Shown in pieces: positions 2,465-20,880 of a stretch of 40,358 nucleotides of DNA (positions are counted from its first letter, which is position 1; each line of letters opens with the position of its first letter). Both the position numbers and the translations under genes were made by a program. Source of the stretch: a virus (Duplodnaviria > Heunggongvirae > Uroviricota > Caudoviricetes); the IMG/VR virus record IMGVR_UViG_2877953467_000003, positions 1 to 40,358 of that record; one strand, written 5' to 3'. Below the pieces are notes generated by a model. The model was not told the origin of the DNA. It saw nothing but the letters and a program-made list of their open reading frames with translations, and did no database searches.

Positions 2465-2899
2465 TCAGTTTAGTGGGGATGCGGGTAACGGCTGGCTTCC
2501 ATCCTCTCCCCTGATATATGCCCGTAACGCTATCCGGTAACGGGTCCATGCTTCTAACTCCACTTTCACCGCATTTTCTGTTGTCCCTGCGTAATCCGAA
2601 TCTTCTATCTGCTCGTTCAGTGCAGTGATTTTTGCCGTTGCCACATTGTACGCAGCCTGCGCCAGTGCCAGGTTTTGTGCTGCAAGGTCTTCTGCCGTTT
2701 GTTCAGGTTCAGGAGGTGGGATAAATACGCCATTTGCATATGACCATCCGATGCCCGGTGTTGGGGCTGATGTTCCATCCCCGGATTGAGCAATCTGAAT
2801 TGCTATCTGATTACCGCCAAATCCAATCGCCGTTTCACCATCCCAGACAATGACGTTTACGACAGTGCCATTTTCAATTACTGCATATGTCTTGCTCAT
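2465..2899 (-). CDS. Tail fiber assembly protein (Tfa)
   Basis: MSKTYAVIENGTVVNVIVWDG N-terminus typical of Tfa chaperones; directly downstream of the tail fiber gene. Maximal ORF extends to 2914. Confidence 0.8.
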   Translation of the reverse strand: MSKTYAVIENGTVVNVIVWDGETAIGFGGNQIAIQIAQSGDGTSAPTPGIGWSYANGVFIPPPEPEQTAEDLAAQNLALAQAAYNVATAKITALNEQIEDSDYAGTTENAVKVELEAWTRYRIALRAYIRGEDGSQPLPASPLN

Positions 2900-2903
2900 C
2901 TTA

Positions 2904-3797
2904 TCACCATTCAATTATCACAATACCCGGAGCCCCATTGCCGCCGCTGCCGCCAGGTGATGCATCACCACCGCCCATTGCCGCATTACCGTATTTTCCC
3001 CCGCCACCACCTCCGCCAGCACCATATCCATACGCATCAGCGCCGTTCGCCACCGGGTCAGATTTCGTAATAGCCCGACCGTTTCCACCACCACCGCCAA
3101 ATGGGGAGCTGCTGCCAAATCCACCTGCTGCAGTTCCTGCTGTTAAAATACCATCCCCGCCCGTCGCCGCCATTGGATAGCCACTGCCTCCTGTTCCCCC
3201 TGCAATTGTTGCGCCCGGTGTGGGTGTGTTAAGTCCACCATTTCCACCTTTGCCGCCTGTCAGTGTTACCAGACTGCCAATAATCGTATTTCCTCCATCT
3301 GTTCCATTACCGCCCGCCCCGACTGATGCAGATGCGCCTATTCCGGCAGCGCCTATAGTGACCGGGATTGATGTTCCTGCTGCGACGGTAAATTTCTTTT
3401 TGATGATTGACTGTCCGGCACCTCCACCGCCGCCTCCTCCTCCGTAATAAGTGGTATCACCTCCACCGCCACCACCGCCGCCACCACCGCCAGCACAGGC
3501 AGTCACATAAATCTCGGTAACCCCATCAGGGATTGTTATCGTCTGTGAAGATGACACAACGACGAAACGGTTATGGCTTATGCAACGGATCGCTGTTAAT
3601 AACTGGTCGTGACGGGATTTATCCAGGCTGGCACCTGACGCCTCCACCACGCTGCAAAGCTCTTCCTGCAACATATCAAAGTAGTCATCATCCAGATCGG
3701 TGGCAGGTGTGCCGGTCTGGGGGTTACCACGGGTAAAACCGTTCTTACCCGCGCCGAACTTATCCTTCTGCGCGGTTTTCGTGTCTATACGATGCAT
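2904..3797 (-). CDS. Tail fiber protein with glycine-rich shaft
   Basis: Conserved tail fiber N-terminus followed by long poly-Gly/GGxGG runs; occupies the Mu gp49 (S) position after the baseplate genes. Confidence 0.7.
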
Positions 3798-3800
3798 GGA

Positions 3801-4385
3801 TTACTCCGGATATTTAAAAATTACGTAGGTATGCGAAGGGCAGAGTTTGTTAAGCACGCACTCGACAACGGTGTCGCCCCAGATACGCAGTGCGGAATCA
3901 CAGGGATCGCCACATGTCATCCAGGTGATGTTGGTGGCGGCTGGCATGTTGACCTGCCAGTAATACCGCCATTCCGGCGCATTCACTGCGTCAGTACAGG
4001 CCGATGAGCAGGTGAACGTGCTTTTATCGTATCGCGTGATAGTGGCGTCTGGTCTGCCCAGGGCAGCAAGCTGTGCAAGATAAAAATCCTCATTGATGCC
4101 GCCCGCCAGATTAACCTTCGCATCCAGCCGTTGCTGACGCTGGCGAAGGGTCTGTGTCCCTGCGGGAATACATTCATCCGGCAGACCGCACAGACGCTCC
4201 CAGCGGTTTATCAGTTCAGTGGTGGTGCGCGGATCCAGCTCCCGCATCAGGGCATCCGCACGCTGATGAACACGGGTTAATGAAGGTGCCGCACCGGCAA
4301 TCGCCGGATCGCTGGCTGACCACGCCGGACCGGGTGGCAACAGTGCCGACAACAGGCGGATGTAATCATCGTTTGTCACGTCCAT
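3801..4385 (-). CDS. Mu gp48-like tail protein (DUF2313/YmfQ family)
   Basis: Position and sequence character consistent with Mu gp48 family, between baseplate J and tail fiber. Confidence 0.65.
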
Positions 4386-5434
4386 GAAATCGTCCCCAGT
4401 ACCGCCAGTTCATTTTTCGCAATGGAGATATTGTCCGCCGGTGCCAGCAACTGATGGCTGTATTCCCCGTTCGCACCGGAAATCGCCTCACTGATACGTG
4501 ACACCTTCAGTTCTCCCTGCGGATAACCATCACGCAGCAAAAACGAACGTAACTCCGCGGTGATGGCAGCCCGTATTTCCGGTGTGTCCGGCGTCACATG
4601 GATATGAAAATCCACCGTATGCGCCACCGGCCTGAACACATACAAATCAGAGCCTGCCACCGGGGCCAGTGGCTCGATATGTTGTCTTGCCGCCGTTTCC
4701 GTTGATTCTTCCGGAATGGGATTAATCAGGTCACTGCTGGCAATCATCACACCGACAGTCCCCGTTCCCATCCAGTGACGGTATGTCCATGCGCGGGTAA
4801 TGCCGGGCACTTCTTTAGCCCAGACGACATAGTCCCCGTCAGCCCCGCCCTGCGGCGTCCAGTAATACCGCTCAATGACGCGGGCGCGCCACGTTTCCAG
4901 CTCTTCAGTATCAAATCCGCCTGTAAGGGTGTCAGCCACACCGGAAGACGGCAGACCATTCACCGGCGTGACCAGGATTAATGCCGTACCGTCGTCAGCG
5001 TTACCGACCGCACCTGCACTTGAGCAGGCGATCGGCACGCGCAGGACACCACCGGAGCTGGTTGCATCGGCAGTTGCCGTGTACTGAACCAGGTCATCGC
5101 GCTGAATAACACTCCCGGCGGTCACCTTCAGGCCATCGCTGACACCTTCCCAGCGCATATACCCGCTGGCAGCCGTGGCCCCCTTGCGCGGACACCGTTT
5201 CATCGCAGCATGTCGCGCCAGCCAGGACTCATCGCACAGGTCAGGCAGCATATTCATTGCCAGATAATCGATGTACCCGTAAACCGTATGCAGCGCCGCC
5301 GCATACACCTTTGCCCGCACGTCTTCATCCATGCGCCGGAGCGTGTCGCTGACGTCCAGCCTGGCGAATAAATCGTTACGGAGCATACTGATATTTTCTG
5401 CCAGCGTCGGGCGCTGAAATTCACTGTCCGCCAT
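4376..5434 (-). CDS. Baseplate J-like protein (Mu gp47-like)
   Basis: 352 aa; synteny within the Mu-like baseplate cluster. Confidence 0.7.
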
Positions 5435-5849
5435 GCGTTATCGCACTCCACAGATCATCAAAAGAAATCATTACCGGTCCGTCACGACGCCAGAGAGTGA
5501 TACTGTTACCCAGCTCATTAATCCCGGTGCGGCGGATATCCAGATCAATACGGGACACCACGCCGTCATCAATCATCCATTGCAGGCATTCGCGGATATA
5601 CCCCCTTACCGTCTGCACCAGCTGATTGGTCAGTTTGCTGCGCTGAAGCAGCCACAGTCGGGAGCCGTAACGGTCATTCTGTACCGCAGGCCAGGTATCC
5701 CCCCACCATCCCATCGGGACATCGGCGTTGTCATCAGGCTCCGCCCGCCGCCAGGTAAACAGGGAAATCACCACGGCGCGGGTCAGCGGATCCAGCTGTG
5801 CGCTGGCGCAGGTGCGTTTACCGTTCACCGTCAGCCACAGTTCCATCAT
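5421..5849 (-). CDS. Baseplate protein (Mu gp46-like, gpW/gp25-like)
   Basis: 142 aa; synteny between the spike and J-like genes. Confidence 0.6.
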   Translation of the reverse strand: MMELWLTVNGKRTCASAQLDPLTRAVVISLFTWRRAEPDDNADVPMGWWGDTWPAVQNDRYGSRLWLLQRSKLTNQLVQTVRGYIRECLQWMIDDGVVSRIDLDIRRTGINELGNSITLWRRDGPVMISFDDLWSAITHGGQ

Positions 5850-6394
5850 GCCTCCATCGCTTTATCAGGTTTGTCGGTGTTACTGCCCTGACCGTTCTCT
5901 CTGTGACGATGCCCGTTATAGGCAAGCCGCATCGCTGACATGGTGGTACCGCTGGAGTCGCACAGGTCTTTCACCTGTCCTGTCACTTCCAGGTCCATTT
6001 CAAAACGTGCTTTAGGTGAATTGCGAAACGTGATCGTTTTACCTGCACCGTCCACCACGATCCCCTCCCGGGTCAGCGTCACGGACTGCCCCTGATCGTC
6101 ATAGACAGCCACCTCACCCGTCTGCAGCCCTTTCAGGCGGTAGCGCCGGTCCGACACCGTAACAACCACCGCATGAGAACGGTCGCCATCCGGAAACAAC
6201 ACCACCGCTTCCGCACCGCTGTTTGCCCTTGCGGTAAAACCATAGGGTTCAAGATGTTCAACCCCGGCTTTGGGTTCACCGGCAATCAGGGACACATCCA
6301 CGGTCTGGCATTTCGTGGCGGCACTGATGCTTTTCACCACTGCCCGCCCAATCAGGCCGAGAAGTTGTCGCTGCATGGCTTCAATCGTCCTCAT
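5846..6394 (-). CDS. Baseplate assembly protein V / spike (Mu gp45-like)
   Basis: 182 aa; synteny; start overlaps the stop of the upstream gene. Confidence 0.65.
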   Translation of the reverse strand: MRTIEAMQRQLLGLIGRAVVKSISAATKCQTVDVSLIAGEPKAGVEHLEPYGFTARANSGAEAVVLFPDGDRSHAVVVTVSDRRYRLKGLQTGEVAVYDDQGQSVTLTREGIVVDGAGKTITFRNSPKARFEMDLEVTGQVKDLCDSSGTTMSAMRLAYNGHRHRENGQGSNTDKPDKAMEA

Positions 6395-7473
6395 CAGAAC
6401 GGGTCCTCCTGTACTCTGGCTTTTTTCTTTTTCCGCGCGCCGGGAGCTTCGGGTTCAGGCAGATAAGCATCAGGCGGGCCGACACGGATTTCCGTCAGGG
6501 TGCCGTTCTGGTCCTGAGTAAACGTGACTTCCGAGACAAGCAGTTCGGTATTGTCGAAACCACAGACCGGATCGAAGACAATCACCCGCTGGTTGGGCTG
6601 CCACAGCGTACCGTTACCCTGTCGCCAGCCCTGCACCACATAGGTGGTTTCATCCGTCCGCGCCGCCCGTTGTCGGGCTTCAAAGTCCGCACGGGCAATA
6701 CAGCCTGCCCCCGTAGCCTGCCCTGTCTGCCTGATATACATCGGACGGTAACGGGCAATAAATGCGTCCTCTGTGCGGGCCCGCAGCGCGGTGGTGGTGG
6801 CCTCACCGAAATCATCGTCGTTTCCGGCACGCTGCCCCGCCACCTGGTAAACAGAAAACCGCTCCCGGATACTCTTCTCCGTATCGCAGGAAAGGATGTT
6901 TTCCCCGAGTACCAGCGCAGTATGTGCCCGCGTTGAGCCAATACCGCCAATCACCAGCCTGCCGTGCGGGTCGTCGTAAGCCAGTGCCTGCTGCTGACCG
7001 AGTATTTTGTTGATTACCTCAATCACCGTTTCACCGTGATCAGGCTGAACATCAGGAATAACACCCGACGGCGCACCGCTGTTCACCACCTCAATGCCGA
7101 AAGGCGCAGCAAGCGCCTGCGCAATCTGCACCAGCGAGCGTCCGTTAAACTGTGTCGGTTCAGCTGCACAGTCAATCAGGTCAGCCGTCAGACTACGTCC
7201 GGCAATACCGGTGCTGACCGAACGGGCATCGTAACGAACGGGAGTCGCCTCCACCCAGCCGGTGATCACCAGCTCATCACCAATCAGCACTTCCACTTTT
7301 GAACCGTTTTTAATGCGCGGCTGAAGCGTGGTGATACCCTCATCTCCCGGCCACTGGCGAGTGATCTCCACACTGAAATCCCGCGCCAGCCGTTCAATAC
7401 CGGCACCGATGCGCACCGATGTCCAGCCATTCCACTCCCGGCCATTTACCCGTAGCGTGACATTGTCGTTCAT
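6394..7473 (-). CDS. Baseplate hub / late control D-like protein (Mu gp44 P-like)
   Basis: 359 aa; synteny after the DNA circularization gene. Confidence 0.65.
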   Translation of the reverse strand: MNDNVTLRVNGREWNGWTSVRIGAGIERLARDFSVEITRQWPGDEGITTLQPRIKNGSKVEVLIGDELVITGWVEATPVRYDARSVSTGIAGRSLTADLIDCAAEPTQFNGRSLVQIAQALAAPFGIEVVNSGAPSGVIPDVQPDHGETVIEVINKILGQQQALAYDDPHGRLVIGGIGSTRAHTALVLGENILSCDTEKSIRERFSVYQVAGQRAGNDDDFGEATTTALRARTEDAFIARYRPMYIRQTGQATGAGCIARADFEARQRAARTDETTYVVQGWRQGNGTLWQPNQRVIVFDPVCGFDNTELLVSEVTFTQDQNGTLTEIRVGPPDAYLPEPEAPGARKKKKARVQEDPF

Positions 7474-8846
7474 TGCACTGGCACCTTCAGAGGGATCACC
7501 GGCACAAAGCCGGGATGCGTAATGGCATTACGCCGGATAATGTCCGCGTCACGCGCCGCGTTATCAAACCAGGTCGCCGCCAGCACCAGCGCGGGTAAAA
7601 CCTCATCCGGTGTGCGCTGAATGATCCGTGCAGACTGTTCAAGGCGCGTGTTGATATCCGCATTCAGATCTGCTTTCACCCGGCGCAGCGCCAGAAACAG
7701 CGCATCACTGGTTGTACGGGACAACTCCTTATCAATTGCCGTATTCAGTGTGTCACGAATGTCAGTCAGTTCTTCCCACGTCGGCAGGTCAACCGTGTTT
7801 TTCACCGCCGGTGCATTGTTCAGTGCCGGATGCGTGACGGAAGGCCAGCCAGTGCTCTGCGCAGGTGTTGTTGCCTGCCCCACTGCGGAATTCTGCATCA
7901 CCGCGGAAGTTGTTGGCGCAGGCAATCTGGTGACGGCATACGCCGCTTCACTGATTGCGGTCGTACGAAGGGTGCTGGCAACCACATTACGCTGCTGCGT
8001 AGCCGTGGCGGTGGTTTTACTGTCCGTTTTCCAGACGCCGCGCGGTTGCAGATCGCTGCCGAGGCTGACACCGGAAAGCGTTTTGATCATGGTGACCAGG
8101 TCGCTGGCGTTACCATAAAGGCGTTTCCCGGTACGCCACATTTTCTGCACCTGCTCAACGAGATTTTTGCCTGACGATGGTGGCGGCAGAAGTACCGAGA
8201 TATCCCCCTGCAACAGCCTGGCAGCATCCGATACGGCAGAATCCACCACTTTCATCGCATCAGAAACATACCCAAGCATTGTGCTGACATTACCAACGAC
8301 GTCGTTCTGCACGAAATCCGCCACGCCATCGATACTGAAACCTCTGAAGCTGTCACTGATGCAATCATCCAGTGCAGAACAGGATGACATCAGCGTCTGC
8401 GCCGTCGCCGCACCTGAAGTGGGGTAAGAGAGTTCTCCCGCTTCGACAAACTTCAGGTCAAAGCGGACAATACGCCCTTCACTCTTCGATGTGCTGACCC
8501 GAACTTCTCCGTCAACACAGACTTTCAGCTCACCGTATGTCGGATGGACAAGCGTGCCGGGACCGGGTTTATTCAGCGCGTCAATCAGGCGATCGCGCTG
8601 GTCAAAGCAGTCATCTCCCACCACATAAGCCGTGATGGACGGGCGAAAAGTGATTTTCCCCAGGTCTTCGGTATAGGGTTTGTCGCGGTTCGGGTATTCA
8701 TGTGTTTCCACACGGCGACCGGTTCCCGCACTTTCTTCTTCAACCTTAAACGGCACGCCGCGAAATGACGCGTCCTGAAGTCTGTCACGCCAGCCTGAAG
8801 ACGACGAAAGTAATGAAGGTCGGGTGGGAAATGAGGATAAATCCAT
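7470..8846 (-). CDS. DNA circularization protein N (Mu gp43-like)
   Basis: 458 aa; immediately downstream of the tape measure gene as in Mu-like tails. Confidence 0.65.
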   Translation of the reverse strand: MDLSSFPTRPSLLSSSSGWRDRLQDASFRGVPFKVEEESAGTGRRVETHEYPNRDKPYTEDLGKITFRPSITAYVVGDDCFDQRDRLIDALNKPGPGTLVHPTYGELKVCVDGEVRVSTSKSEGRIVRFDLKFVEAGELSYPTSGAATAQTLMSSCSALDDCISDSFRGFSIDGVADFVQNDVVGNVSTMLGYVSDAMKVVDSAVSDAARLLQGDISVLLPPPSSGKNLVEQVQKMWRTGKRLYGNASDLVTMIKTLSGVSLGSDLQPRGVWKTDSKTTATATQQRNVVASTLRTTAISEAAYAVTRLPAPTTSAVMQNSAVGQATTPAQSTGWPSVTHPALNNAPAVKNTVDLPTWEELTDIRDTLNTAIDKELSRTTSDALFLALRRVKADLNADINTRLEQSARIIQRTPDEVLPALVLAATWFDNAARDADIIRRNAITHPGFVPVIPLKVPVQ

Positions 8847-8870
8847 AGACTGACCTCAAAAAGGACTGCG

Positions 8871-10778
8871 TTATCGTGGAAAACGAAAAGGGGAATACCC
8901 CACATCGTGCGTGATTTTCATCAGGGGATCGGCTTTGCCCGGTACATCAATTATCTTCATACCTGGCGGAGCATTCTCGAACGTGACTTTCAGCTCGCTG
9001 TGCTGTGTCATGGAAGAAGATGGATTCAACAGCGGAACATTGGGTTTGTACTGACTCAGGCTGGCCTGATACTGCTCGTACTCTTTACGATCAAAAAAAG
9101 GCGTCCAGTCTGAAGCCAGAAACAGCCCTTTATTATCCAGCCAGTTAACCGTATCTTCAGGAACAACACTTTCCAGAGTATCTTTAACCGGCTCATACAT
9201 CAGGGTTCCCAGAAAACCATATACCCCGGCCTTCCCGATAAAGCCGCGGCCTTTCCCCATCAATCCCGTTTCTGCCGATACCTTCCCCAGCGTACGCATC
9301 TCTCTGGTCACTGCGGTAATGGATTTGGTAACGTCAGCAACCCATTTGGTTGCCATAAACAGGGCAATCGCTTTCAGAACAGTTTCCCATCCCCCCATCG
9401 CCTGCGCCGTTTCATCCACCACGTGCCAGACTTTTTTTATGACAGGACCTACGGTTTCCCAGTTATCAATAATGAGGTAAGCGCCACCAACCAGAAGAGC
9501 AATCAGCCCCTTAGCAGGCGTCATATTCATCACACCGCCGAGAACTTTCATAATTCTGGACAAAGAGCCTGCAGCGGCTCCCACCGTCAGTAAGGCCAGA
9601 CCGATTTTAGCAATGGTCTTAACGAGCTCCGGGTTTTCACGGACAAACGTTCTCACTTCCTCAAGGAGCGGTTTTACCGCTTCAAGACCATCATTAACCT
9701 CAGGAAGAAACGTTTCCCCCAGCGTGGAAGAAATGGCATCAAGTTGATTTTGCAGAAGTAAAAGCTGGTTTTCCGTCGTCGCTGCCCTCGAAGCATATTC
9801 CTTCTGCATCGAACTGCCATACTGCTGGGAATCCGCAACCCGCCTGAAGTTGGTACGCAACAAATCAAGGTTAGTCAGCAGAGGTGCTATCGCGCCCAGA
9901 GACTCTTTCCCGAACAGGGCATTCAGCACAGCTGCCTGTTTTTCTTTGGGCACTTTAGCCATCGCATCCAGTACAGACAGCATGGTTCCCCGGGCATCTT
10001 TCTGCATATCAGCAGCTAATTTCTTCGGATTGATCCGCAGAAAACGTAATGCCTGTTTCTGCGATTTTGTCGCGGAATTTCCCGCGGTCAGGGAAAGCAT
10101 GAAGTTCTTGATCCCTGTGGCGGCAATTTCTGACTCCACGCCCATCCCGGCAATGGTTGCCCCCATTGCCGCGATTTCGCCGGAAGCCACACCTGCAACA
10201 CCACCTAAAGGACCAATACGCGTAACAATATCGGAGATTTTCTTCGCATTCGCCGGGCCGGTATTACCAAGGTAGTTGATTTTGTCAGCCAGCCCGGCCA
10301 CTTCATCCTGCGTCATATTAAACGCAGTACGCCACTGGGCCATCATCTGCCCGGACTCTTCAGCCGTGGTATCAAAGGCCACGCCCATCTTCACCGCATC
10401 AGTGGCAAACTGCATCAGTTCATCACGTGCAATCCCGGCCTGACCGCCAGCCGCCACAATTTCCGCGATCCCGTCTGCAGACATGGGAAGCTCAGTAGAC
10501 AAAGCGCGTACCTGCTCCGTCATGGCCTTAAACGCATCCGGCGTATCCAGACCGTCCACCACTTTGCGGATATCAGCCATCTTCGATTCAAGGGTGATGG
10601 CTGATTTTACAGGGAGTGCCAGTGCCCCCATTATTGCAGTACCCGCCCCGGCAGCGCCCAGAGCAAGGCTGGAGACTTCTTTCTGAAACCCCTTAAGCTG
10701 ACGCTGCATACCTTTAAGCGGGCCGGACAGCCTGTCAACGGCGGTGATGATGGCTTTCAGCTGAAAATTATCAGCCAT
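8871..10778 (-). CDS. Tail tape measure protein
   Basis: 635 aa, alanine/glycine-rich helical protein with hydrophobic segments; located between tail chaperone and baseplate genes. Confidence 0.85.
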   Translation of the reverse strand: MADNFQLKAIITAVDRLSGPLKGMQRQLKGFQKEVSSLALGAAGAGTAIMGALALPVKSAITLESKMADIRKVVDGLDTPDAFKAMTEQVRALSTELPMSADGIAEIVAAGGQAGIARDELMQFATDAVKMGVAFDTTAEESGQMMAQWRTAFNMTQDEVAGLADKINYLGNTGPANAKKISDIVTRIGPLGGVAGVASGEIAAMGATIAGMGVESEIAATGIKNFMLSLTAGNSATKSQKQALRFLRINPKKLAADMQKDARGTMLSVLDAMAKVPKEKQAAVLNALFGKESLGAIAPLLTNLDLLRTNFRRVADSQQYGSSMQKEYASRAATTENQLLLLQNQLDAISSTLGETFLPEVNDGLEAVKPLLEEVRTFVRENPELVKTIAKIGLALLTVGAAAGSLSRIMKVLGGVMNMTPAKGLIALLVGGAYLIIDNWETVGPVIKKVWHVVDETAQAMGGWETVLKAIALFMATKWVADVTKSITAVTREMRTLGKVSAETGLMGKGRGFIGKAGVYGFLGTLMYEPVKDTLESVVPEDTVNWLDNKGLFLASDWTPFFDRKEYEQYQASLSQYKPNVPLLNPSSSMTQHSELKVTFENAPPGMKIIDVPGKADPLMKITHDVGYSPFRFPR

Positions 10779-10862
10779 GCTTCATCTCCTCATTTATACG
10801 GACGGCCTCTGCCTCCAGATCAGCAAAGTGGGAAATAGCCGTCCGGCGAAGTTCAAGGGGGT

Positions 10863-11186
10863 TTAATTTCCAGAACCACGCGACATTGTAGAATCGCTTC
10901 CGGAGGTCTCTTCCGTCTCCAAGCCGGTAAAAAAACGCATTACAATCATGCCTGCCTTGAAAATATCCAGCTTCGTCATCTGCGCTGCAGACGAGCGCGG
11001 GATCCCGGCCAGAAGCGGGATATATTTCAGCGCTACCTGACTGTCCATTTTCATACCACCATCAGGTGAAACAGAGAAAGGGAACCCCAGCGCCTCAATC
11101 TCGTCATACGTAGGCTCACGTATTTCCAGCACATGCAGTGTTTCTTTGTGGGCGATGATCGGTTTTTTAAGTACAAGCTCAATCAC
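10863..11186 (-). CDS. Tail assembly chaperone (Mu gp41-like)
   Basis: 107 aa ORF between tail tube and tape measure; an 84 bp gap before the tape measure could hold a frameshift extension (not verified). Confidence 0.5.
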   Translation of the reverse strand: MIELVLKKPIIAHKETLHVLEIREPTYDEIEALGFPFSVSPDGGMKMDSQVALKYIPLLAGIPRSSAAQMTKLDIFKAGMIVMRFFTGLETEETSGSDSTMSRGSGN

Positions 11187-11539
11187 TGGTAATCCCCTTC
11201 TTCACCGTGGAACTCAAGATCAACCGTGCCTTCTTCGGCATTATGGTTCGCTTCGCCGTGCAGCCAGGCAGACGACAGTACATAGACCTGACCGTTCGCC
11301 AGCTCGGCAGTGATGGTCATCTCATCAGACGAGGTGATTTTGCTTACCGGAAAATTCTTCGGCACCTTGAAGGTCCCTTTGACATAAGGCGCACGGTGAG
11401 TTTCCTTGCGGTCCACTGAACCGTCCAGGCCGATGATGTCATCGTTAACCGTTTTGTTCATGGGCACCTCAATGCCGCCGGTCAGCGATAGCTGCTGACC
11501 GTCAATTTTGAAATAACAGGTTCCCCCGATACGGGCCAT
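11183..11539 (-). CDS. Tail tube protein (Mu gp40-like)
   Basis: 118 aa; directly downstream of the sheath gene with overlapping start/stop. Confidence 0.7.
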   Translation of the reverse strand: MARIGGTCYFKIDGQQLSLTGGIEVPMNKTVNDDIIGLDGSVDRKETHRAPYVKGTFKVPKNFPVSKITSSDEMTITAELANGQVYVLSSAWLHGEANHNAEEGTVDLEFHGEEGDYQ

Positions 11540-13035
11540 TATGCAGACTCCTCTGAATACTGAAGACGGAACTGATTAACCACGGCAAAGACACGCAGCT
11601 GGTTAACATAGTCAGGCGGGAACAGCGTGTTCAGGCGGTTCGGATCGCTGGCATCACGCTCCACAACCAGATACTGCTTAAACAGTTCGTAGTTTTCCAC
11701 GATCCCCGCACGCTCAAGCTGACGGTAGGTTGCCAGCAGTTCCCCTTTGATTACCGCCGGGGTGACAATCGCCTGACCGGGACCAAAGCGGGTACCGTCG
11801 CTGGCAAGCTTGTGACGCCCGTACTTACTGGTAATGACGGATTTCAGTTTGCGCAGTACATACGCACTGGTATGCAGCGTCTCGCTGTCGAGGTAGCTGT
11901 TATCCGCAACACCGTAAGCGTTTTTCCTGTACGTGGTGACATCACGCTGAATGCGCAGCACCCCACTTTCGACATACGCCGTTGCCACGCCATGAGATAG
12001 CAGGGTCTGTTGTTCGGTCATCGTGAACCGTTTCCCCTTCGGCGCAGGCAGCATACCCACCAGCTCACCGGTCTGCGTGGGACGTGCCGGATCGTTGCGA
12101 ATAAACACCGCTGCGCGGGCGGTACGGCTTGCCGCCAGCTCGTCGGCAGGCGTCTGGGTCTCTTTTTCATATCCCGCCAGGGTAATGTGCTGCTGGTTAA
12201 ACTGGTCACCTGCGGTCACCAGTTCTGACAGCGTGCCGATCTTTGCCGTATACACATGACCATACAGCTGACGCGCATAGCTCCAGCGACCGCTGGTATC
12301 GTTCATCTCGGTCACCAGCGTGTTAACGGAGGCCGTGTCGTTGAACGGCAGGCCGATATAATCAAACGGCTCATCCGCCATTGCAGCCACCGCGCCAGTG
12401 AGAACAGGAGCGCCCGTTCCGGCGGTACCCGTCGCCACGGCAATCTGTACGCCCGCTGGCAGCACTTCGCCCCCACCAAAGCCGTAGTAATTGAGGCTGA
12501 CAGGAATTTCATTCCCGCAAAGCCCCTTATGACGCGCGGTCAGTGTGACCACGCCTGCCGAAGATGAAGCCGTAAACGGCAGGGTCGGAACGGCATTGAT
12601 GGCATCCTGGATACTGCTGGCAATCGTCGTGACGTTATCGCCGTTGGTCACCGGAGCCTGCACGCGGGTACGTCCCACATAGACATTCACCGTGCCGCTT
12701 TCGGTTGCTTCCCCGGTCACCGTCAGCGTAACCGTTGCCGCCGCGCCTGTGGATTCAGGAACGGCAATCACATACAGCTCGCCAAACGGGTCGGTCTGGC
12801 GATAAGCCTCGACCATACGCGCCAGCTGACTTCCCGCACCACAAATCTGGCGTGCATAGTCTGCCGACGGCATCAGTACCAGACTGTTGGCAACAATCTC
12901 TGCACCGTTATTGGCATGACCAATCAGCAGCGATGCTCCGCTGTCCTGTGCAGTATTCGCCGCCTGGTTATCCATTTCCGCATAAAACAACGGAACCAGC
13001 GTATTCGACGGAATGGTGTTAAAGCTTATCGTCAT
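11539..13035 (-). CDS. Contractile tail sheath protein
   Basis: 498 aa; size and position upstream of tube gene typical of myovirus sheath. Confidence 0.85.
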   Translation of the reverse strand: MTISFNTIPSNTLVPLFYAEMDNQAANTAQDSGASLLIGHANNGAEIVANSLVLMPSADYARQICGAGSQLARMVEAYRQTDPFGELYVIAVPESTGAAATVTLTVTGEATESGTVNVYVGRTRVQAPVTNGDNVTTIASSIQDAINAVPTLPFTASSSAGVVTLTARHKGLCGNEIPVSLNYYGFGGGEVLPAGVQIAVATGTAGTGAPVLTGAVAAMADEPFDYIGLPFNDTASVNTLVTEMNDTSGRWSYARQLYGHVYTAKIGTLSELVTAGDQFNQQHITLAGYEKETQTPADELAASRTARAAVFIRNDPARPTQTGELVGMLPAPKGKRFTMTEQQTLLSHGVATAYVESGVLRIQRDVTTYRKNAYGVADNSYLDSETLHTSAYVLRKLKSVITSKYGRHKLASDGTRFGPGQAIVTPAVIKGELLATYRQLERAGIVENYELFKQYLVVERDASDPNRLNTLFPPDYVNQLRVFAVVNQFRLQYSEESA

Positions 13036-13189
13036 CGGTATTCACCTTTTTATTCACGCGCCGGATATCACCCGCTGCTTCACGGCGCAGCCAGTAGTTG
13101 TTCTCATCAACATTTCGCCCCTCGGCGGGCAAAAGGTCGCCGCGGGCAGGGTCAGGAACTGACCGCCCTTTAACAGGTTTCACAAACAT
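13028..13189 (-). CDS. Small hypothetical protein upstream of sheath gene (about 53 aa)
   Basis: Hand-translated minus-strand ORF (MFVKPVKGRSVPDP...) overlapping the sheath start; below ORF-track size cut-off. Confidence 0.3.
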
Positions 13190-13197
13190 GAAGATTC

Positions 13198-13758
13198 TCA
13201 GGAAGGAAGGGTTATTTCGGTGTGATGTTCGATATCGCCGTCAGGCCCGTTACCGGGATCGAGATAATCAACATCAATCGCCAGCGTTCGCAGTTCATCC
13301 AGACTGTTCAGGTCATCCTGCTGGCGGGTATCGTCTTCGGTCAGCTCGCTGATGACCGAAAAATCGAACTGATAAATCAGCTCATGACGATTCAGATCCA
13401 GCAGCGTGCCGCCGTCATAGGTAATCGGGTTACCGCACGCCTCCGGGTTCCAGCCCAGCAGAGCCTTAAAGAGCATCTGCCGGACATCGTCCACTACATC
13501 ATACGAGGCAAACTGACCGCGCTCATCACGCCCGTTACTCAGTATGACAACCACGGAGAAACCCTCTTTCAGCTCCTGCCAGTAGTCGGTCTGGCTTTTG
13601 TTTTCTCCCGGAGAATCATCACCCGGTACAACATATGCCGCCGGGAGTTTCAGCTTTCCGACCTCCGGCAGATTTTTGAACTGTGCCGCGCCTGCCACCC
13701 GGTTTTCAAAATACGGGCAGCGGGCACGCAGCGCAGCAATAACAGGCGTCAGTTTCAT
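13198..13758 (-). CDS. Mu gp37-like tail/virion protein (DUF1834-like)
   Basis: 186 aa; synteny upstream of sheath. Confidence 0.5.
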   Translation of the reverse strand: MKLTPVIAALRARCPYFENRVAGAAQFKNLPEVGKLKLPAAYVVPGDDSPGENKSQTDYWQELKEGFSVVVILSNGRDERGQFASYDVVDDVRQMLFKALLGWNPEACGNPITYDGGTLLDLNRHELIYQFDFSVISELTEDDTRQQDDLNSLDELRTLAIDVDYLDPGNGPDGDIEHHTEITLPS

Positions 13759-14261
13759 CTGTGTCGTCGCTCCGGCTTCAGTGATTTACGCAATTCCCGC
13801 GCCAGAAAATAGCGTGTCCAGCTGCGGTTCTTTTCAAGAGTTTCCACCATGAAGTTATTACGTGGAGCCAGTCGCCAGCCGCTGCCACCGGATGCACCAC
13901 GATGATGACTACGACGACGTTTTGCTCCTCCCCGGACACCAAAAAACAGAAATGCCGGATAGAAGTCACCAGAGATCATCCGGTTCCCCTTCCCGTTGCG
14001 CTGGTTAGGGGCAATGCGTGTCATAAAACCGGCTCGCTTTTTACTGGCTCTCGGCACCATATAACCAATCGAACGAGCCAGGCGTCCGGTCTGATAACCG
14101 GGGTTTTCACCTGGTGCCGACCGCGCACGGCGCATCACCAGCCGACGGGCATCACGCATATGACGCTGCCCAATCGTGACAAACGCCCGCCGGACACGGG
14201 CGCGGTTAAAGCGCATCTCGGCGGGCTGCTGAACATCAACGTGAAAAAAGGGAGTCGCCAT
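13755..14261 (-). CDS. Virion morphogenesis protein (Mu G-like)
   Basis: 168 aa basic protein; position between head-tail joining and tail genes. Confidence 0.55.
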   Translation of the reverse strand: MATPFFHVDVQQPAEMRFNRARVRRAFVTIGQRHMRDARRLVMRRARSAPGENPGYQTGRLARSIGYMVPRASKKRAGFMTRIAPNQRNGKGNRMISGDFYPAFLFFGVRGGAKRRRSHHRGASGGSGWRLAPRNNFMVETLEKNRSWTRYFLARELRKSLKPERRHR

Positions 14262-14646
14262 TGCTGCCTCCGTGACTCTGCCTACATTCGCCCAGCTCCG
14301 TACACTCCAGCAGCAGAAAGCGCCGCGCCCCGTTCAGATCACGCTGACGTTTCACCCGGTACACACTGTCATCACAGACCACCTCATAATCAGCGGTGAT
14401 CCCCCGGCGGTAACGAATGGTGATGTAATGGGTGATGGCGTCCCCGGTCTGCGCGGTTTCCTGCCAGGTGGTGGCACTGGTCTGGACAACCTTCGCCCAT
14501 GCCCGGAACGCAACCGGGTATTGAGGCTCCACGCCAAAGTTATCCGCAGGCATATCCACCCGCTGGCGGATCAGGACGCGTTTATTCAGTTCGCCGGGGT
14601 CCGGCAGAATGTAGGTTGCGCTGGTCTGCGCCTGACGAATTTTCAT
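14236..14646 (-). CDS. Head-tail joining / head closure protein
   Basis: 136 aa; synteny downstream of the connector gene. Confidence 0.5.
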   Translation of the reverse strand: MKIRQAQTSATYILPDPGELNKRVLIRQRVDMPADNFGVEPQYPVAFRAWAKVVQTSATTWQETAQTGDAITHYITIRYRRGITADYEVVCDDSVYRVKRQRDLNGARRFLLLECTELGECRQSHGGSNGDSLFSR

Positions 14647-14966
14647 TGCGGAAAGTACCTGTACGGGCCGACAAGCCAGCCAAAACTCTGCGGCATGTCG
14701 AGTTTCTCCACTTCCGTAACCGAAGAGCGGTTTTCGTAAAAATGGCTGATAAGCATCAGCATCCCCAGACGAATATCATCCGACAGGTGCAGCCCGTCCG
14801 GATCGCTGTCCGGAATGGTTTCATCCGGTGCATAGAGCTTCCGGTTCAGATACGTTTCCGTCCGCTTTTGCGCCGCACAGGCCAGCAGTTGCAGATGGCG
14901 GTCATCAGCATCGAAATCCTCATCCAGCCGGAGTTGGGCTTTAATCTCTTCCATTGTCAGAAGCAT
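14643..14966 (-). CDS. Head-tail connector protein (gp6-like)
   Basis: 107 aa acidic protein; conserved position after the major capsid gene in HK97-like heads. Confidence 0.55.
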   Translation of the reverse strand: MLLTMEEIKAQLRLDEDFDADDRHLQLLACAAQKRTETYLNRKLYAPDETIPDSDPDGLHLSDDIRLGMLMLISHFYENRSSVTEVEKLDMPQSFGWLVGPYRYFPQ

Positions 14967-14968
14967 AC

Positions 14969-15169
14969 TCAGCCCTCTTTACTGGTCGTGGCTTTTTTCT
15001 CTTTTGCCGCTTTACTGCTTTTTGCACTGGTTCCGCGCTCTGCTAACCCGGCCTGAAGTGCAATCTCCTGCACCCGGGCAGGAAGCGCCCCGTCGTCATA
15101 CTCACCGGCCCGAATGACCTCAACACGCATACCGTCCGGTGACCATTTCAGATCTTGTTTCAGGATCAT
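14969..15169 (-). CDS. Hypothetical small protein with Lys/Ser-rich C-terminus
   Basis: 66 aa ORF tightly packed between capsid and connector genes. Confidence 0.4.
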   Translation of the reverse strand: MILKQDLKWSPDGMRVEVIRAGEYDDGALPARVQEIALQAGLAERGTSAKSSKAAKEKKATTSKEG

Positions 15170-15218
15170 GATTCTTCACCCGTCAGAACAGGGGGCGCGG
15201 TTCCGCGCCCCTGAGTGA

Positions 15219-16424
15219 TTACGCCGCTGCAATCTTCAGCAGTTTGATGGCCTGCGAATCGACCAGCATCCCGCCGGTGCGCTTGGTGGTATAAAAACCG
15301 ACAAACGGTTTATTGGTGTACGGATCACGCAGAATGCGGGTGCCGATACGGTCAACGATGGTGTAACCCCGTTTGAAGTTACCAAATGCAATGGCTTTCG
15401 CATCAGCGGCGATATCCGGCATCTGTTCGTTTTCAGCGATACCGTAACCCGCCAGAGAGGACGGCTGCCCCAGTTCCAGCCCCGGACGCCACAGATAGTT
15501 ACCCTCGGTGTCTTTCAGCAGACGGATGGCAAACAGGCTGTTGTTGTTCATCATGAACTTCGCGCCAGTGCGGTGTGCCTTTCGCAGCGTGTAAATCAGT
15601 TTGATAATGGCGTCTGCGGTCACCGCGGTCGCTTCGCCGGATACAATATGCTGAAGTTTGCCGAACGCCCGGACCTTATCGGTTTCATCAGTGGATTCAT
15701 ACGCCAGGAACCCTTTCGGCTTCTTGGTACCATCGCCGGTGGTAAAGGCAATTTCTTCCTGTTCGGCAAATTCGGTTGCCAGCTCGCTGTTGATCCAGGC
15801 CTCCACGTTGAAGAAGGCATCATCCAGCATTTTCTGTGTGGCCTGCGGGTTACCGTAGATTTCCCCCATGAAAGGTTCAATCAGCTCCAGTCTGGAGGTG
15901 GCAGTCTGGGATCGCGTATCCGTTTCCCCCACCCATCCGGAAGCCGTACCGCCCAGATTCACCAGTTTTTTGTAGTCGGAACCGCCAACGGTGATCACCG
16001 TGGCTTCCTGACGCATCACAACTTCATCTTTCAGCAGGTTAAGAATGTTGCGATCCAGTTCTTCCGGCACGGCATAGCCACCGTCTTCATCGGTGCCCAC
16101 CTGCAATGCCTTACGCTCCAGATCGCGCAGACCGTCTTCACGGCCTTTACGCAGGAAGCCCACAAACGCCTCTTTGTGCTCTGTGGCCAGTTTATTTTGC
16201 GCACCACCTGCCGGACGTTTCAGCTCAAGCAGCTCTTTTTCAAGGTCGCTTTTGAGATTTTCCAGCTCGCTGAGTTTCCCGTTCAGGGTTTCCACCTGCC
16301 CGGCAAGTTTGCCTTTTTCCTGCTCAATCGCATCCACGCGCTTGTCGTTCTTTGCTTTGAAGTCGTCAAACTTCTGCTGCAGTTCCTGCGCGACCTGTTC
16401 GACATCTTTAATATCTACCGCCAT
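15219..16424 (-). CDS. Major capsid protein (HK97 family)
   Basis: 401 aa with coiled-coil N-terminal delta domain and HK97-fold body; follows the prohead protease. Confidence 0.85.
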   Translation of the reverse strand: MAVDIKDVEQVAQELQQKFDDFKAKNDKRVDAIEQEKGKLAGQVETLNGKLSELENLKSDLEKELLELKRPAGGAQNKLATEHKEAFVGFLRKGREDGLRDLERKALQVGTDEDGGYAVPEELDRNILNLLKDEVVMRQEATVITVGGSDYKKLVNLGGTASGWVGETDTRSQTATSRLELIEPFMGEIYGNPQATQKMLDDAFFNVEAWINSELATEFAEQEEIAFTTGDGTKKPKGFLAYESTDETDKVRAFGKLQHIVSGEATAVTADAIIKLIYTLRKAHRTGAKFMMNNNSLFAIRLLKDTEGNYLWRPGLELGQPSSLAGYGIAENEQMPDIAADAKAIAFGNFKRGYTIVDRIGTRILRDPYTNKPFVGFYTTKRTGGMLVDSQAIKLLKIAAA

Positions 16425-16438
16425 CGTATTTCTCCTGA

Positions 16439-17125
16439 TTAGAAGTTCAGATTTTTCAGTGCATTCAGTGCAGAGCTCACATCCTCAGCGTCGCGCAGGG
16501 ACAGTGCGCCATAGCCCCCGGCCATGAATGCTTTGGCCTGGGTACGGGAGAGTCCGACATCACGCAGGACTCTTTCGATTTTTTTCTGTTCGGGGATTTC
16601 CCCGCGGGCCAGTGCGTTCTTGACGTCGCTGATCCGCGCCTCGTCGTTAGACGGGAACGTCACCAGGCTGACTTCCCAGAGGTCGATTTCTTTCAGCAGA
16701 AAGGCTTCTTTGCTCCGGTCGTATTCCCAGTCTTTCAGGACGTACCCAATAGAAAGGCCGGTTAACGAACCGGCCTTCATGTGTGCATGTGCGCGTTTTG
16801 CGAGGGGATCATCATCAATAAGCAACCGTCCCCTGACGTAAAGCCCGACATCGTCTTCCTTCATTTCGGTGTAAACACCGATGGGCTCATCCATGCGGTG
16901 CTGCCAGAGCAGCGCAGGTAACGCTTTTCTGTCACTCCACGCCCGCAGGGAAGCAGCAAATGCCCCGGACATCACCACATCATCGTGGCTGTCCTTTACA
17001 CCAAAGACGGAGCCATACCCTTCAAACTCACCGGAGTCACTGACAGATTTCAGACTCAGCGGTACATCAAGACGTTGTTTCGTCTGCATTGGCGTTATCC
17101 TTCTGCTTACCGGCTTTACTGCCAT
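16439..17125 (-). CDS. Prohead protease (HK97 family)
   Basis: 228 aa; between portal and capsid; start region overlaps the portal 3' end. Confidence 0.8.
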   Translation of the reverse strand: MAVKPVSRRITPMQTKQRLDVPLSLKSVSDSGEFEGYGSVFGVKDSHDDVVMSGAFAASLRAWSDRKALPALLWQHRMDEPIGVYTEMKEDDVGLYVRGRLLIDDDPLAKRAHAHMKAGSLTGLSIGYVLKDWEYDRSKEAFLLKEIDLWEVSLVTFPSNDEARISDVKNALARGEIPEQKKIERVLRDVGLSRTQAKAFMAGGYGALSLRDAEDVSSALNALKNLNF

Positions 17126-18329
17126 CGGAGGGTTTCGTGGTCATATTCATCGGTGTGAGATAGACATCCCCACCGGGACGCGGATTCATATCTTCCAGGT
17201 CGCGGCAGTCATTGGGAGAGTAAATTCCCCAGTTGATACCGGTGGCGTAGGCTTCAAAACGGGACTTCATATCCCCGCGCAGTAACGCCCCGGCGTTAAA
17301 TTTGGCGTAATAAACGCCCTGCTTACTTTTTCGTACCAGTCCGGTGTTGATCCGCTGCTCAATGCGGGTCAGATACGGCACCAGTGAATAGTTGATAAAT
17401 CCCAGCCCCAGCTCTTCGATATTGTTGAAGGTGGCGCGATCGGTGTTCTGCACCATGTGCAATGGCACCCGGAACAGACGACAGATTTCTTCAAGCTGAA
17501 ACTTGCGGGTTTCCAGGAACTGGCTGTCCTCGGCGTTCAGCGCCATCGACTTCCAGTCCAGCCCCATCTCAAGGATCATCGGGCGGTGAGCATTGCCAAG
17601 CCCGGTGTGACGCTCCTCAAAATCTTTCTTCAGGCGCTCATAAGCCTGATCCGACAGCGTCTGCTCTGTACGCAACACACCCGACGTCACCGCACCATTG
17701 CTGAACAGTCTGGCCCCGTGCTCTTCGGTCGCAGCTGCCAGCGATATTGCCTCGCGGGCATAGGCGATGGGATTCAGTCCCACCAGACCGTCCAGCGTCA
17801 GCGTGCGCACATGCCAGATATCTTCCTGGCTCAGTACATCCGTGGAGCCGTCCGGGAATGTGACCTGATAGATCGGCTCCCAGCTACTGTTAAGCTTCGG
17901 TACCACACAGCCGGGATCGACGGGCAGCAGTTCAGCCACTTCGCCAAATGCTTTCACTTTGTAGGCGTAAAAGTTTCCCCGCAGGCACAGACAGGTGACC
18001 ACCAGCTCCCAGAACTCCTGCGGCGTCATATAGCCATTGGGATGCGTGGAGATCAGTTTATGCAGACGTTCGCCGGTGGCTCTCTGCTTCAGGCTGCCGT
18101 TCAGGTGATACAGGTTGCAGGGCAACATCCCGACCGACTCTGCCAGCACTCTGACGCAGGAAAAAACCGCCGTCAGTCGCATGGCCCGCTGACTGCTGAT
18201 CTGCTTTCCGGTATAGGTGTCATACGACAGCCCGATGGCATCCGCCAGCTCTGCTGGCGTGGTCACCGGTGCGTCACTTTTTCGTTGAAATAATCCCGAA
18301 AATCGTTGAAATAATCCCGAAAAGAACAC
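17067..18329 (-). CDS. Portal protein (HK97 family)
   Basis: 420 aa directly downstream of TerL; N-terminal region carries a 21 bp in-frame tandem duplication. Confidence 0.85.
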   Translation of the reverse strand: MFFSGLFQRFSGLFQRKSDAPVTTPAELADAIGLSYDTYTGKQISSQRAMRLTAVFSCVRVLAESVGMLPCNLYHLNGSLKQRATGERLHKLISTHPNGYMTPQEFWELVVTCLCLRGNFYAYKVKAFGEVAELLPVDPGCVVPKLNSSWEPIYQVTFPDGSTDVLSQEDIWHVRTLTLDGLVGLNPIAYAREAISLAAATEEHGARLFSNGAVTSGVLRTEQTLSDQAYERLKKDFEERHTGLGNAHRPMILEMGLDWKSMALNAEDSQFLETRKFQLEEICRLFRVPLHMVQNTDRATFNNIEELGLGFINYSLVPYLTRIEQRINTGLVRKSKQGVYYAKFNAGALLRGDMKSRFEAYATGINWGIYSPNDCRDLEDMNPRPGGDVYLTPMNMTTKPSDGSKAGKQKDNANADETTS

Positions 18330-18511
18330 TATTTACCTCCGCCGACAGACGACTGTGTACGGTCGAGATATCGCGCCACCAGCCACGACCAGAACAGGCA
18401 CAACGCCCCGGCAACAACAAACCCCGCCGGGGGATAAATCAGCCAGGCACCATACGCCAGCAAAAGCGCCCCCAGCACGCCCACCAGAGGCGCGAGAATC
18501 AGTATGATCAT
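18329..18511 (-). CDS. Small membrane protein
   Basis: 60 aa, two hydrophobic helices; between terminase and portal. Confidence 0.4.
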
Positions 18512-18522
18512 AATTACCTCAG

Positions 18523-20256
18523 TTAAAGCGAGCGGATCCCATAGGACTCAATGTGGTCAGACAGCGTGTCTTCTTTCTCGTACAGCATGGCTCTGCCAAC
18601 CGCCATAATCAGCGCAACTGCACCATCGATTTTGTTTTCCGCCTGCTCTTTGACGGGCTTCACCACATCATCGTTACCCGGAATGGTTTTGCCGACCACG
18701 TTGCCGATACACCAGGTCATGATGGGATTGCCATCATGATGAAAGCGCCCCGATTCAATTGCCGCTTCCAGCTCTTTCATCGGGTCGGACATGTTGGTGT
18801 AGTTCTGAATGATAGTGACGGGATTCAGGTCTTCATCAGCAAGGTCATGTGACAACCCGGTCGCCCCGAAGGGGTCGATGGGTGACTCACTGACCGGGCT
18901 GATTTTGTTCGCCGCTTTGGCCTCCTCGAGGATGTAGCGATAATCCACCTCCGCACCATCGGTAACGGTCAGAACGCCCATTTCCACCCATTTCTGAAAG
19001 CGTTCGGCTGTCCGGCGATCTTCATTTTTCTCGACGCTGTACACCGTGTCATACGGTACCCAGAAACGCGGGGCCACACTGTAGTAATGCGTTTTACCGT
19101 CAATCTCGCGGGTATAAAGTCGCGCCATGCTGTTCATATCCAGCTTACGCGCCAGGTCAAAGGCCAGAATGCACGGCTGTCCCTCGAACTGCTCAAGGGT
19201 CAGTGATTTATCCTCGCAGCTCTGCCAGCTCACCAGGTTGAAATACGCCGAACGTGCCGACACCCAGATATTGAGGTGTTTTGTTTTAAAGACGTTTGCC
19301 AGACGGGCGTTATTTTTCGCACGCTGCTGCTGACTTAACAAAAATTCGCGATAAACCGACACGCCAATATTTGGATTGGCTTTTTCCAGCACCTGCGGGT
19401 CGGTCCAGTCGTCACCTTCATCAACGGTATAGATGATCCCGAACAGTTCATCGTTGGGTACCGACCCGTTGAGCATCTCGATAACTTCCCGCCGCTTGTC
19501 GTAGCACGGCCCCTCAATGTTGTACCCGGCAGTAGTAATGGCCCACATCAGTGGCTGACGTCGCGCCCCCATCCCGGTAAGCATCGTGGTGTAAAGCGCA
19601 TCGGTGGCGTGCTCGTGATATTCATCCACCACCGCACAGTGGGGTGATGATCCATCACCGGGGTTACCGATCAGCGGTTCAAACCGCGCGCCATCCTCCG
19701 GACGGTTCATGTTTGAGGCGTTAACCTCAATCCCGAACGCTTCCGTCAGCATGGGTGTGCGTTTACACATCAGTCGCGCCGGGCGAAAGACTTCCCACGC
19801 CTGTTTCTCTGTCGTGGCACCGGAATACACTTCCGCGCCAAACTCGTTATCACAGGCAAAACAATACAGGGCGACACCGGCAGAGATTGCCGATTTGCCG
19901 TTCTTACGGGGGATTTCGGTATACACCTCCCGGAAGCGGCGCAGCCGGGTACCTTTATTGACCCAGCCAAACGCACAGCAGATCACAAAGAGCTGCCACG
20001 GCTCCAGCGTGATGGGCATCCGTTTGAATGCCCACTCACCCTTGGTATGCGGCAACAGCTGAATAAATTTGGCGGCCCGTTCAGCCAGGTCCTTGTCGAA
20101 GCGGTAACGAAACGACTTACTTTTTTCCGCCATCAGGTCATCAAGATGGCGCTGGCAGGCCTGAATCACAAACTGGCAGGCCACAATCTTTCCGCGCACG
20201 ACATCACGGGCATACTGATTGGCTGCATTTACGTTGGGGTAAGATTTCCGGCTCAT
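18523..20256 (-). CDS. Terminase large subunit
   Basis: 577 aa; ATPase plus nuclease architecture; follows TerS. Confidence 0.9.
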
Positions 20257-20269
20257 GATTCGATGATTT

Positions 20270-20764
20270 TCAGATTGTCAGAAACGGGTTAGTGGCTTTC
20301 TTCTTCCCCGCCAGGCCAATCAGACGCTGGCGGCTGCTGGGGTCGAGTCCGAGCATTGCCCCCGTGCTGCTCATCTCGGACTCCTGTTCTTTTTTGGCGG
20401 TCAGCTCCGGATTTTTGACCATGCCGCCCATTGCACCGGTGATGGTGTTGCCCTGTCTGGCAATATTTTTCACGGCACGTCGCCAGAACTCATAGGCTAC
20501 GCACCACCGCTCAAGTACCGCCAGGTCAGTCACGCACAGCAGGCCCTGACCGCAGAGTTCTTTGGTTGTCAGTTGCCACATGATCGTGGCGAGAGGGAGA
20601 TCTTCTTCAGCGAACCACTCCGGTGGCTCAACACCTTTGATGGGCGTAAAAACAGGTTCATCTTTATTCAGGGCTCGCTTGCCGGGGTTTCCGGCCAGCG
20701 CCTTGCGCGCCGTTGGCTTGGGGCGACGCCCGGAACGCCCCGCCGTTCCAGCCATATGCGGCAC
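20270..20764 (-). CDS. Terminase small subunit (P27 family)
   Basis: 164 aa with basic N-terminus [18 protein letters not shown]; upstream of TerL. Confidence 0.8.
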
Positions 20765-20880
20765 TCCTGGTTAAATTTCATTTTTCGCGGGTATAAAAAA
20801 ACGATGGGGCGGGCAGTCCGGAAGACGTCAGGTCACAGAGATTTGACCCGCCCCTCCCCTCAGACAGTTGAGAGTTATTA

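Follow-up and report, generated by a model that had tools for sequence, protein, structure and literature searches.

The tail fibre gene considered here encodes uninterrupted runs of 11 and 8 glycines, and the question it raises is what such runs are: repeats whose length changes easily, places where fibres recombine, or parts of a folded protein. The gene lies in a 40,358-nucleotide stretch of a Caudoviricetes virus (IMG/VR record IMGVR_UViG_2877953467_000003), which is called the window below and to which coordinates refer unless another sequence is named. A preliminary description, made from the sequence alone, regarded the runs as simple-sequence GGN repeats and as candidates for slipped-strand length variation or recombination that could alter fibre length or host range.

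The fibre gene, its chaperone gene and the prophage

The window starts with yfdC and a tRNA-Arg(CCT) gene (1009-1083), followed by a prophage integrase; the insertion point of the prophage is the argW site of E. coli. The host element is an SfV/SfIV-like Mu-type myovirus prophage, and its structural module (3800-21000) shares ~97% identity with the Shigella phages SfIV, SfII, SfI and SfV as well as with E. coli phage vB_EcoM-720R4. This homology ends ~65 codons into the fibre gene, and at the fibre position SfIV has another fibre, of 216 aa. The genes around this point are as follows.

2465-2899, minus strand: predicted tail-fibre assembly chaperone of 144 aa, with its ATG 4 nt after the fibre stop codon
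2904-3797, minus strand: tail fibre gene (297 aa plus stop), an intact ORF for a 'simplified' fibre of the Pam3 gp24 type
3801-4385, minus strand: baseplate wedge protein resembling Mu gp48, next to the fibre gene on its upstream side (PF10076, E 9e-27; PHROG 203)
4376-5434, minus strand: Baseplate J (gp47-like) protein (PF04865, E 1e-52)

The fibre ATG begins 3 nt past the stop codon of the upstream gene and is preceded, 7 nt before it, by a GGAG Shine-Dalgarno sequence. The gene had been assigned to a tail fibre, which is right, and the ORF and its translation confirm the claimed runs of 11 and 8 glycines in a 297-aa protein. Glycine makes up 28% of the whole protein and 36% of aa 83-297, and the following tracts were read directly from the sequence.

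3459-3491, minus strand: run of 11 glycines (G11), aa 103-113
3420-3443, minus strand: run of 8 glycines (G8), aa 119-126
3084-3098, minus strand: tract of 5 glycines (G5), aa 234-238, of invariant length in relatives
2997-3017, minus strand: tract of 7 glycines (G7), aa 261-267, the predicted first arm of the last glycine hairpin (equivalent to L6 of Pam3)

Because a run of at least 11 glycines arose in just 13 of 20,000 composition-preserving shuffles of the glycine domain, the tracts exceed what glycine richness would lead one to expect.

The fibre gene is directly followed by a gene for a predicted dedicated chaperone resembling tail fibre assembly (TFA) proteins, which is the Pam3-type arrangement. 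A mechanically produced ORF list begins this gene at a TTG (2914) instead. The ORF at 2465-2899 matches PHROG 188, tail fibre assembly protein (E 4.6e-7); its match to Pfam Caudo_TAP is below threshold (E 0.0017, 18.9 vs 22.1 bits), and a profile built from seven chaperone homologues matches the Mu tail fibre assembly protein 5YVQ with a marginal E of 0.0012. A phmmer search of the PDB with the chaperone sequence alone gave no meaningful match. ORFs that are 67-71% identical to it follow the same glycine-rich domain in four other phage types.

The fibre gene is rare in this form. In a megablast search of 5426 complete E. coli genomes it was found at full length only in PE15 (NZ_CP041628.1), and its first ~200 nt in 1480 of them (PE15 and 1479 partial matches). 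The exact protein, that is, the exact combination of N-terminus and domain, was absent from a collection of 15 billion proteins. The PE15 and window genes are one synonymous base apart, outside the tracts, and the tracts are identical. In RefSeq the PE15 gene is a 231-nt pseudogene 'missing C-terminus' (6001-6231 of the PE15 locus L001, corresponding to window 3567-3797), but the 297-aa ORF is in fact intact, and the call is probably an annotation artefact arising from the low-complexity glycine domain.

Several other features of the two prophages were observed. PE15 carries an oppositely oriented gene for an 'OB-fold protein' between the tape-measure and DNA-circularization genes (L001 421-873), and the matching gap in the window prophage (8846-8871) does not have it. 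As this gene occurs in only one of the two, the prophages are close, not identical. In the window, the integrase stop and the chaperone stop are separated by 62 bp only (2402-2465), where, unlike in SfIV, there is no gtr (O-antigen glucosylation) serotype-conversion module.

Domain architecture and predicted fold

The fibre can be divided into a short N-terminal region and a large C-terminal domain, and the two longest glycine runs lie next to each other in the latter.

3570-3797, minus strand: N-terminal region (aa 1-76), a putative baseplate-docking module (SfV-type identity, helices in the AF2 model)
2907-3569, minus strand: C-terminal domain, TNF-like and rich in glycine (aa 77-297), the putative receptor-binding module
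3420-3491, minus strand: hairpin L1, made up of the G11 arm (3459-3491), the tip DTTYY (3444-3458) and the G8 arm (3420-3443)

Over residues 1-65, identity to the fibres of SfV, SfII, SfI and SfIV is 95-97%. The AF2 model contains two helices (aa 37-53 and 65-74) and is of low confidence at the N-terminus (pLDDT 45-61 for aa 1-40), and the N-terminal region has a weak Foldseek match to a Mu baseplate chain. The SfV-type N-terminus, together with the gene order after the gp48-like gene, suggests that aa 1-76 dock the fibre to the baseplate. Most E. coli SfV-type glycine-rich fibres of 310-334 aa contain a linker of ~25 aa (..RALLLSRKNPFGDIKSDG..ALENLGL..) that the window fibre does not have (3570-3600, aa 66-76); its second helix leads directly into the TNF-like domain, an arrangement also seen in Pam3 gp24.

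The C-terminal part had been described as glycine-rich rather than as a recognisable receptor-binding domain. It is, however, a recognised domain, Pfam PF21722 (Gly_rich_2): aa 83-297 correspond to positions 4-225 of the 226 in the profile, at 49.5 bits against a gathering cut-off of 24.3. An exhaustive search retrieved 826 cluster representatives with this domain at E of 1e-3 or better, and in these it is almost always at the extreme C-terminus, ending in ..PGxVxIEW. Several family proteins (P0008, P0020, P0034, P0049, P0050, P0083, P0087 and others) are labelled 'carbohydrate kinase' in NCBI, which looks like a propagated misannotation of Gly_rich_2 fibres.

The fold was assessed on a monomer AlphaFold model. 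In this predicted fold, a TNF-like beta-sandwich is continuous with a glycine-rich lattice domain; the fold comparison gave values of ~3.5-4 for TNF-family ligands, and the top Foldseek ranking was similar. G11 and G8 form both arms of a single hairpin, G11-DTTYY-G8, for which the pLDDT is 98/82/98 in 10-residue blocks covering arm, tip and arm. This hairpin aligns to loop L1 of the fibre gp24 of cyanophage Pam3 (PMC9608196). The longest glycine runs of the fibre align to Pam3 L1 and L6, and units of arm, tip and arm are visible in the sequence; from these and the Pam3 alignment, we infer the number of hairpins and the PGII geometry.

It could also be argued that the glycine-rich region serves as a shaft or linker, whether flexible, disordered or collagen-like, as its low-complexity composition would allow and as might be read from the PGAP annotation of the PE15 gene, which ignored the glycine-rich part. 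The structure prediction that the preliminary description had called for places the glycine tracts in confidently ordered segments, and at the level of prediction a disordered linker is rejected on this ground. A collagen-like shaft was rejected because the longest G-X-Y run is two triplets and only 11 of the 297 residues are Pro. We regard a shaft or linker as scarcely credible.

Tract length and module exchange

According to the slippage reading, strand mispairing at GGN codons would generate in-frame variants in glycine number, which in turn alter fibre length or host range. The gene does have long Gly-coding tracts with an imperfect period-3, -9 and -12 structure, but its glycine codons are mixed (GGC 28, GGT 28, GGA 21, GGG 6). 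The longest perfect trinucleotide repeat in the gene extends over 11 nt (3.7 units), at a period of 12 the longest perfect repeat reaches 26 nt, and Tandem Repeats Finder reported only imperfect, low-scoring arrays (scores 36-54, 72-90% matches). No long perfect tandem array of identical short units, the hallmark of a contingency locus, was found in the fibre gene; the Gly-coding tracts of the preliminary description stand, and their label of simple sequence is only partly right. Recent expansion of a tract would leave a surplus of adjacent identical codons, so the lack of any excess of such Gly codons (14 observed vs 11.5 expected) counts against slippage. Selection against repetitive codons was also considered by shuffling the Gly codons; their arrangement is the same as random and supports neither side.

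Because only PE15 matched at full length among the 5426 E. coli genomes, relatives were taken from contigs reached via protein matches, and the fibre genes of six were compared together with their DNA. In five of them, which are 75-96% identical in the domain and each carry a different N-terminal region, the domain is 217 aa long throughout and free of indels, contrary to the suggestion that the tracts alter fibre length. Within the 31 tract codons, these five differ from the window by 14-22 synonymous and 0-1 non-synonymous changes. The sixth relative (57% identity) has three G-to-S and 21 synonymous differences and no tract indel; its nine gap columns all lie outside the four long tracts, at one loop start and two loop tips, and one of these gaps deletes a short GGG run in the last tip. 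The G7 tract is invariant in length across the relatives, with only synonymous or G-to-S changes. In total, PE15 and the six relatives at 57-96% identity show zero tract indels, that is, no repeat-number polymorphism.

The same constancy was seen more widely. Among the subfamily proteins selected by a set of sequence anchors, 26 out of 26 have an L1 of identical length; of 141 distant representatives, 123 have an L1 of 23-28 aa, and the mode, 24, is also the value of the window. No glycine run longer than 11 occurs among the 143 representatives listed. Tract-length variants were sought with the pattern ATTTATGT N{31,61} GATACNACNTATTAC N{18,48} TCAATCATYAA, with 0 matches in genome_contigs and metagenome_contigs; on the local loci this variable-gap pattern has a constant span of 116 nt. 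A search of genome_contigs for related loci with the glycine domain returned one partial locus only, at the end of a Kluyvera contig.

Length is constant while codons drift, and the tract length is therefore kept by selection on the fold. Judging from these sequences, invariant length under heavy synonymous turnover is the opposite of a contingency repeat, and invariance across relatives is the very outcome that the preliminary description had named as refuting slipped-strand variation. With the window and PE15 tracts identical and the tracts confidently ordered in the model, the slippage reading is largely refuted, and we hold it to be very improbable; rare in-frame slippage of G11 within populations may occur.

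Recombination, by comparison, has left a trace in this gene, namely a long identical patch.

2852-3412, minus strand: recombination patch of 561 nt that takes in loops L2-L6 together with the initial 47 nt of the chaperone gene

This segment is 100% identical to a metagenomic contig (L002, approx. 1095-1655), the fibre of which has a P2-type tail-collar N-terminus (PF12571), unlike that of the window. Upstream of the patch, L1 included, the two are only 68-78% identical. The L1 region of L002 instead matches a Citrobacter youngae fibre gene (L004) at 96% identity, and 3' of L1 the contig is 99.8-100% identical to the window. The left crossover lies between domain codons 48 and 53, inside the shared word TCAATCATCAAAA just 3' of G8, which codes for the strand after L1; it is not inside Gly codons. 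The patch points to a recent recombination within the domain. At a larger scale, the same 217-aa domain occurs fused to N-terminal modules and baseplate types of at least five kinds, including the SfV-type of the window and the P2-type tail-collar (P0001/L002). Fibre diversity, as far as can be read from these alignments, arises by module exchange and not by slippage. The earlier remark on recombination thus found limited support in one loop-exchange event, and the proposed change of fibre length by recombination found none.

These observations could be taken to mean that the Gly-coding segments are themselves hotspots at which specificity loops are shuffled between the fibres of unrelated phages, as has been proposed for the glycine-rich motifs of T-even gp38 (cited in PMC12032242). 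The recombinant nature of L002 and the many partners of the domain would agree with this. However, the single intradomain event seen has its crossover at TCAATCATCAAAA and not at Gly codons, the Gly codons of the partners differ at most third positions, the longest words they share in L1 are 11-19 nt, and the majority of module junctions are located upstream of the domain, close to ..NLGL.. We consider such hotspots possible but unlikely. A more specific idea is that the codons of the L1 arms and the SIIKK strand, together with the 5' end of the chaperone gene, are preferred crossovers, so that L2-L6 would form a mobile cassette of ~560 nt; this is speculative, and doubtful too is the passage of such a cassette among the unrelated tail types concerned (SfV/Mu-type, P2 tail-collar type and Phage_Wedge1-type baseplates). 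If true, it would represent shuffling within a receptor-binding domain of the kind put forward for T-even gp38, here in another fibre family, one that is widespread.

Some neighbouring observations also deserve mention. The conserved ..NLGL.. motif, not present in the window fibre, seems to mark the point at which modules are usually joined in relatives. The L002 chaperone (1582-1992) is 40% identical to that of the window beyond its first 16 residues and resembles the chaperone of another locus (L006) instead; given this value despite identical L2-L6, there is no sign that chaperone and receptor-binding domain are strictly paired, and chaperone specificity may not track the tip loops. In two loci with the same fibre type (L006 4348-5544 and L008 4426-5184), a resolvase/invertase gene directly follows the fibre and chaperone genes, and L006 also has inverted ORFs, one of them bearing a Gp53-like_C domain. 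This arrangement suggests fibre switching by inversion, similar to that of the Mu G segment; the window has none of it.

Building on the domain family, the predicted fold match, the invariance of the tracts, the linked chaperone gene and the recombination patch, we propose, with a probability of about 85%, that the gene encodes a glycine-lattice receptor-binding fibre. It would be the only tail fibre, a short one, of an SfV/SfIV-like prophage, docked onto the baseplate by residues 1-76 and presumably trimeric. Residues 77-297 would form a TNF-like beta-sandwich, the strands of which continue into six glycine-rich hairpins, and these hairpins would pack into a polyglycine lattice held by main-chain hydrogen bonds. 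G11 and G8 would be the antiparallel arms of the central hairpin L1, their length being fixed by the fold because the packing leaves no room for side chains. The non-glycine tips (DTTYY and the tips of L2-L6) would make up the distal surface by which the host receptor, probably LPS or some other structure of the outer membrane, is bound; this role of the tips is suggested by analogy with Pam3 (PMC9608196) and with TFP_Y of a Klebsiella phage (PMC12671077). The substitutions of the relatives, judged by eye and uncounted, appear mainly in the non-Gly tip segments. The 144-aa protein would act as a chaperone of the Mu-TFA/Pam3-gp25 type, aiding the folding and trimerisation of the domain. Specificity would then evolve as the tips acquire point changes and as the module, entire or in part, undergoes homologous exchange, rather than through slippage.

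Significance and comparison with known systems

The fold, the domain family, the pairing with a chaperone and the role of the glycine motifs have all been described previously, and it is the chimera of the window itself that is rare. Gly_rich_2 fibres are a common family in enterobacterial prophages and are often mislabelled 'carbohydrate kinase' or 'hypothetical'. Poly-Gly runs in such fibre genes should be read as elements of a polyglycine lattice, not as hypermutable repeats. For host-range prediction and fibre engineering, the non-Gly tips, namely DTTYY and those of L2-L6, are the candidate determinants, and in engineering the Gly arms and the cognate chaperone are best left intact. The identical 561-nt patch illustrates how tips move between unrelated phages.

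Several known proteins share some of these features. The glycine-rich (TNF-like plus GR) domain of ALK/LTK (PDB 7LIR, 7LRZ, 7NX1) is ~20% identical, but it belongs to the ectodomains of eukaryotic receptor tyrosine kinases that bind cytokine ligands and has no functional relation to the fibre. Bxb1 gp33 ('tail wing brush') and gp29 (PDB 9D93), from a mycobacteriophage, are accessory proteins of a siphovirus tail tip, and they differ in the actinobacterial host of the phage and in their other attachment modules. In gp38 of T-even phages and S16, glycine-rich motifs form a compact polyglycine core (PGII sandwich) with hypervariable receptor-binding tips (Dunne et al. 2018, as cited in PMC12032242), and the same source gives these motifs as proposed recombination sites. 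Unlike the window fibre, in which a TNF-like domain precedes the Gly lattice and which attaches directly through a baseplate module, gp38 is monomeric, has a beta-helix rather than a TNF-like fold, arranges 10 motifs in three layers and caps a separate fibre, gp37. Neither gp38 nor its structure 6F45 was among the significant sequence or fold matches of the window fibre.

A further comparison is offered by the fibres of certain Klebsiella phages. TFP_Y of phage SCNJ1-Y is, like the window protein, a fibre of an enterobacterial phage, was modelled on Pam3 gp24, and has a glycine-rich domain that sets the host range (PMC12671077). In this gp24 homologue, which interacts with LPS, the experimentally selected host-range mutations were point substitutions, T169 and S209, in the glycine-rich domain (PMC12671077). 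Phages of the SCNJ1-Y type are lytic, whereas the window holds a prophage.

The best parallel is Pam3. Its gp24, known together with the chaperone gp25 from PDB 7YPX and 7YFW (PMC9608196, PMC9942802), consists of a helical docking domain at the N-terminus (one long and one short helix), followed by a TNF-like sandwich and then by a glycine-rich domain (PMC9608196). The last is built from 12 glycine-rich motifs in six hairpin loops, packed at a spacing of ~5 A; L1 and L6 are central and the most Gly-rich, and the tips are hypervariable and proposed to bind receptors (PMC9608196). The chaperone gp25, encoded downstream, resembles the Mu tail fibre assembly protein (PMC9608196). There are differences: the host of Pam3 is a cyanobacterium and that of the window an enterobacterium, the N-terminal docking region of the window fibre is of the SfV/e14/CPS-53 type and unrelated in sequence to that of Pam3, and the L1 arms are pure Gly (11 and 8) in the window and of the GGGGxGG type in Pam3. 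With these differences, the window protein fits the Pam3 plan, in which G11-DTTYY-G8 would be L1 and G7 would start the last hairpin.
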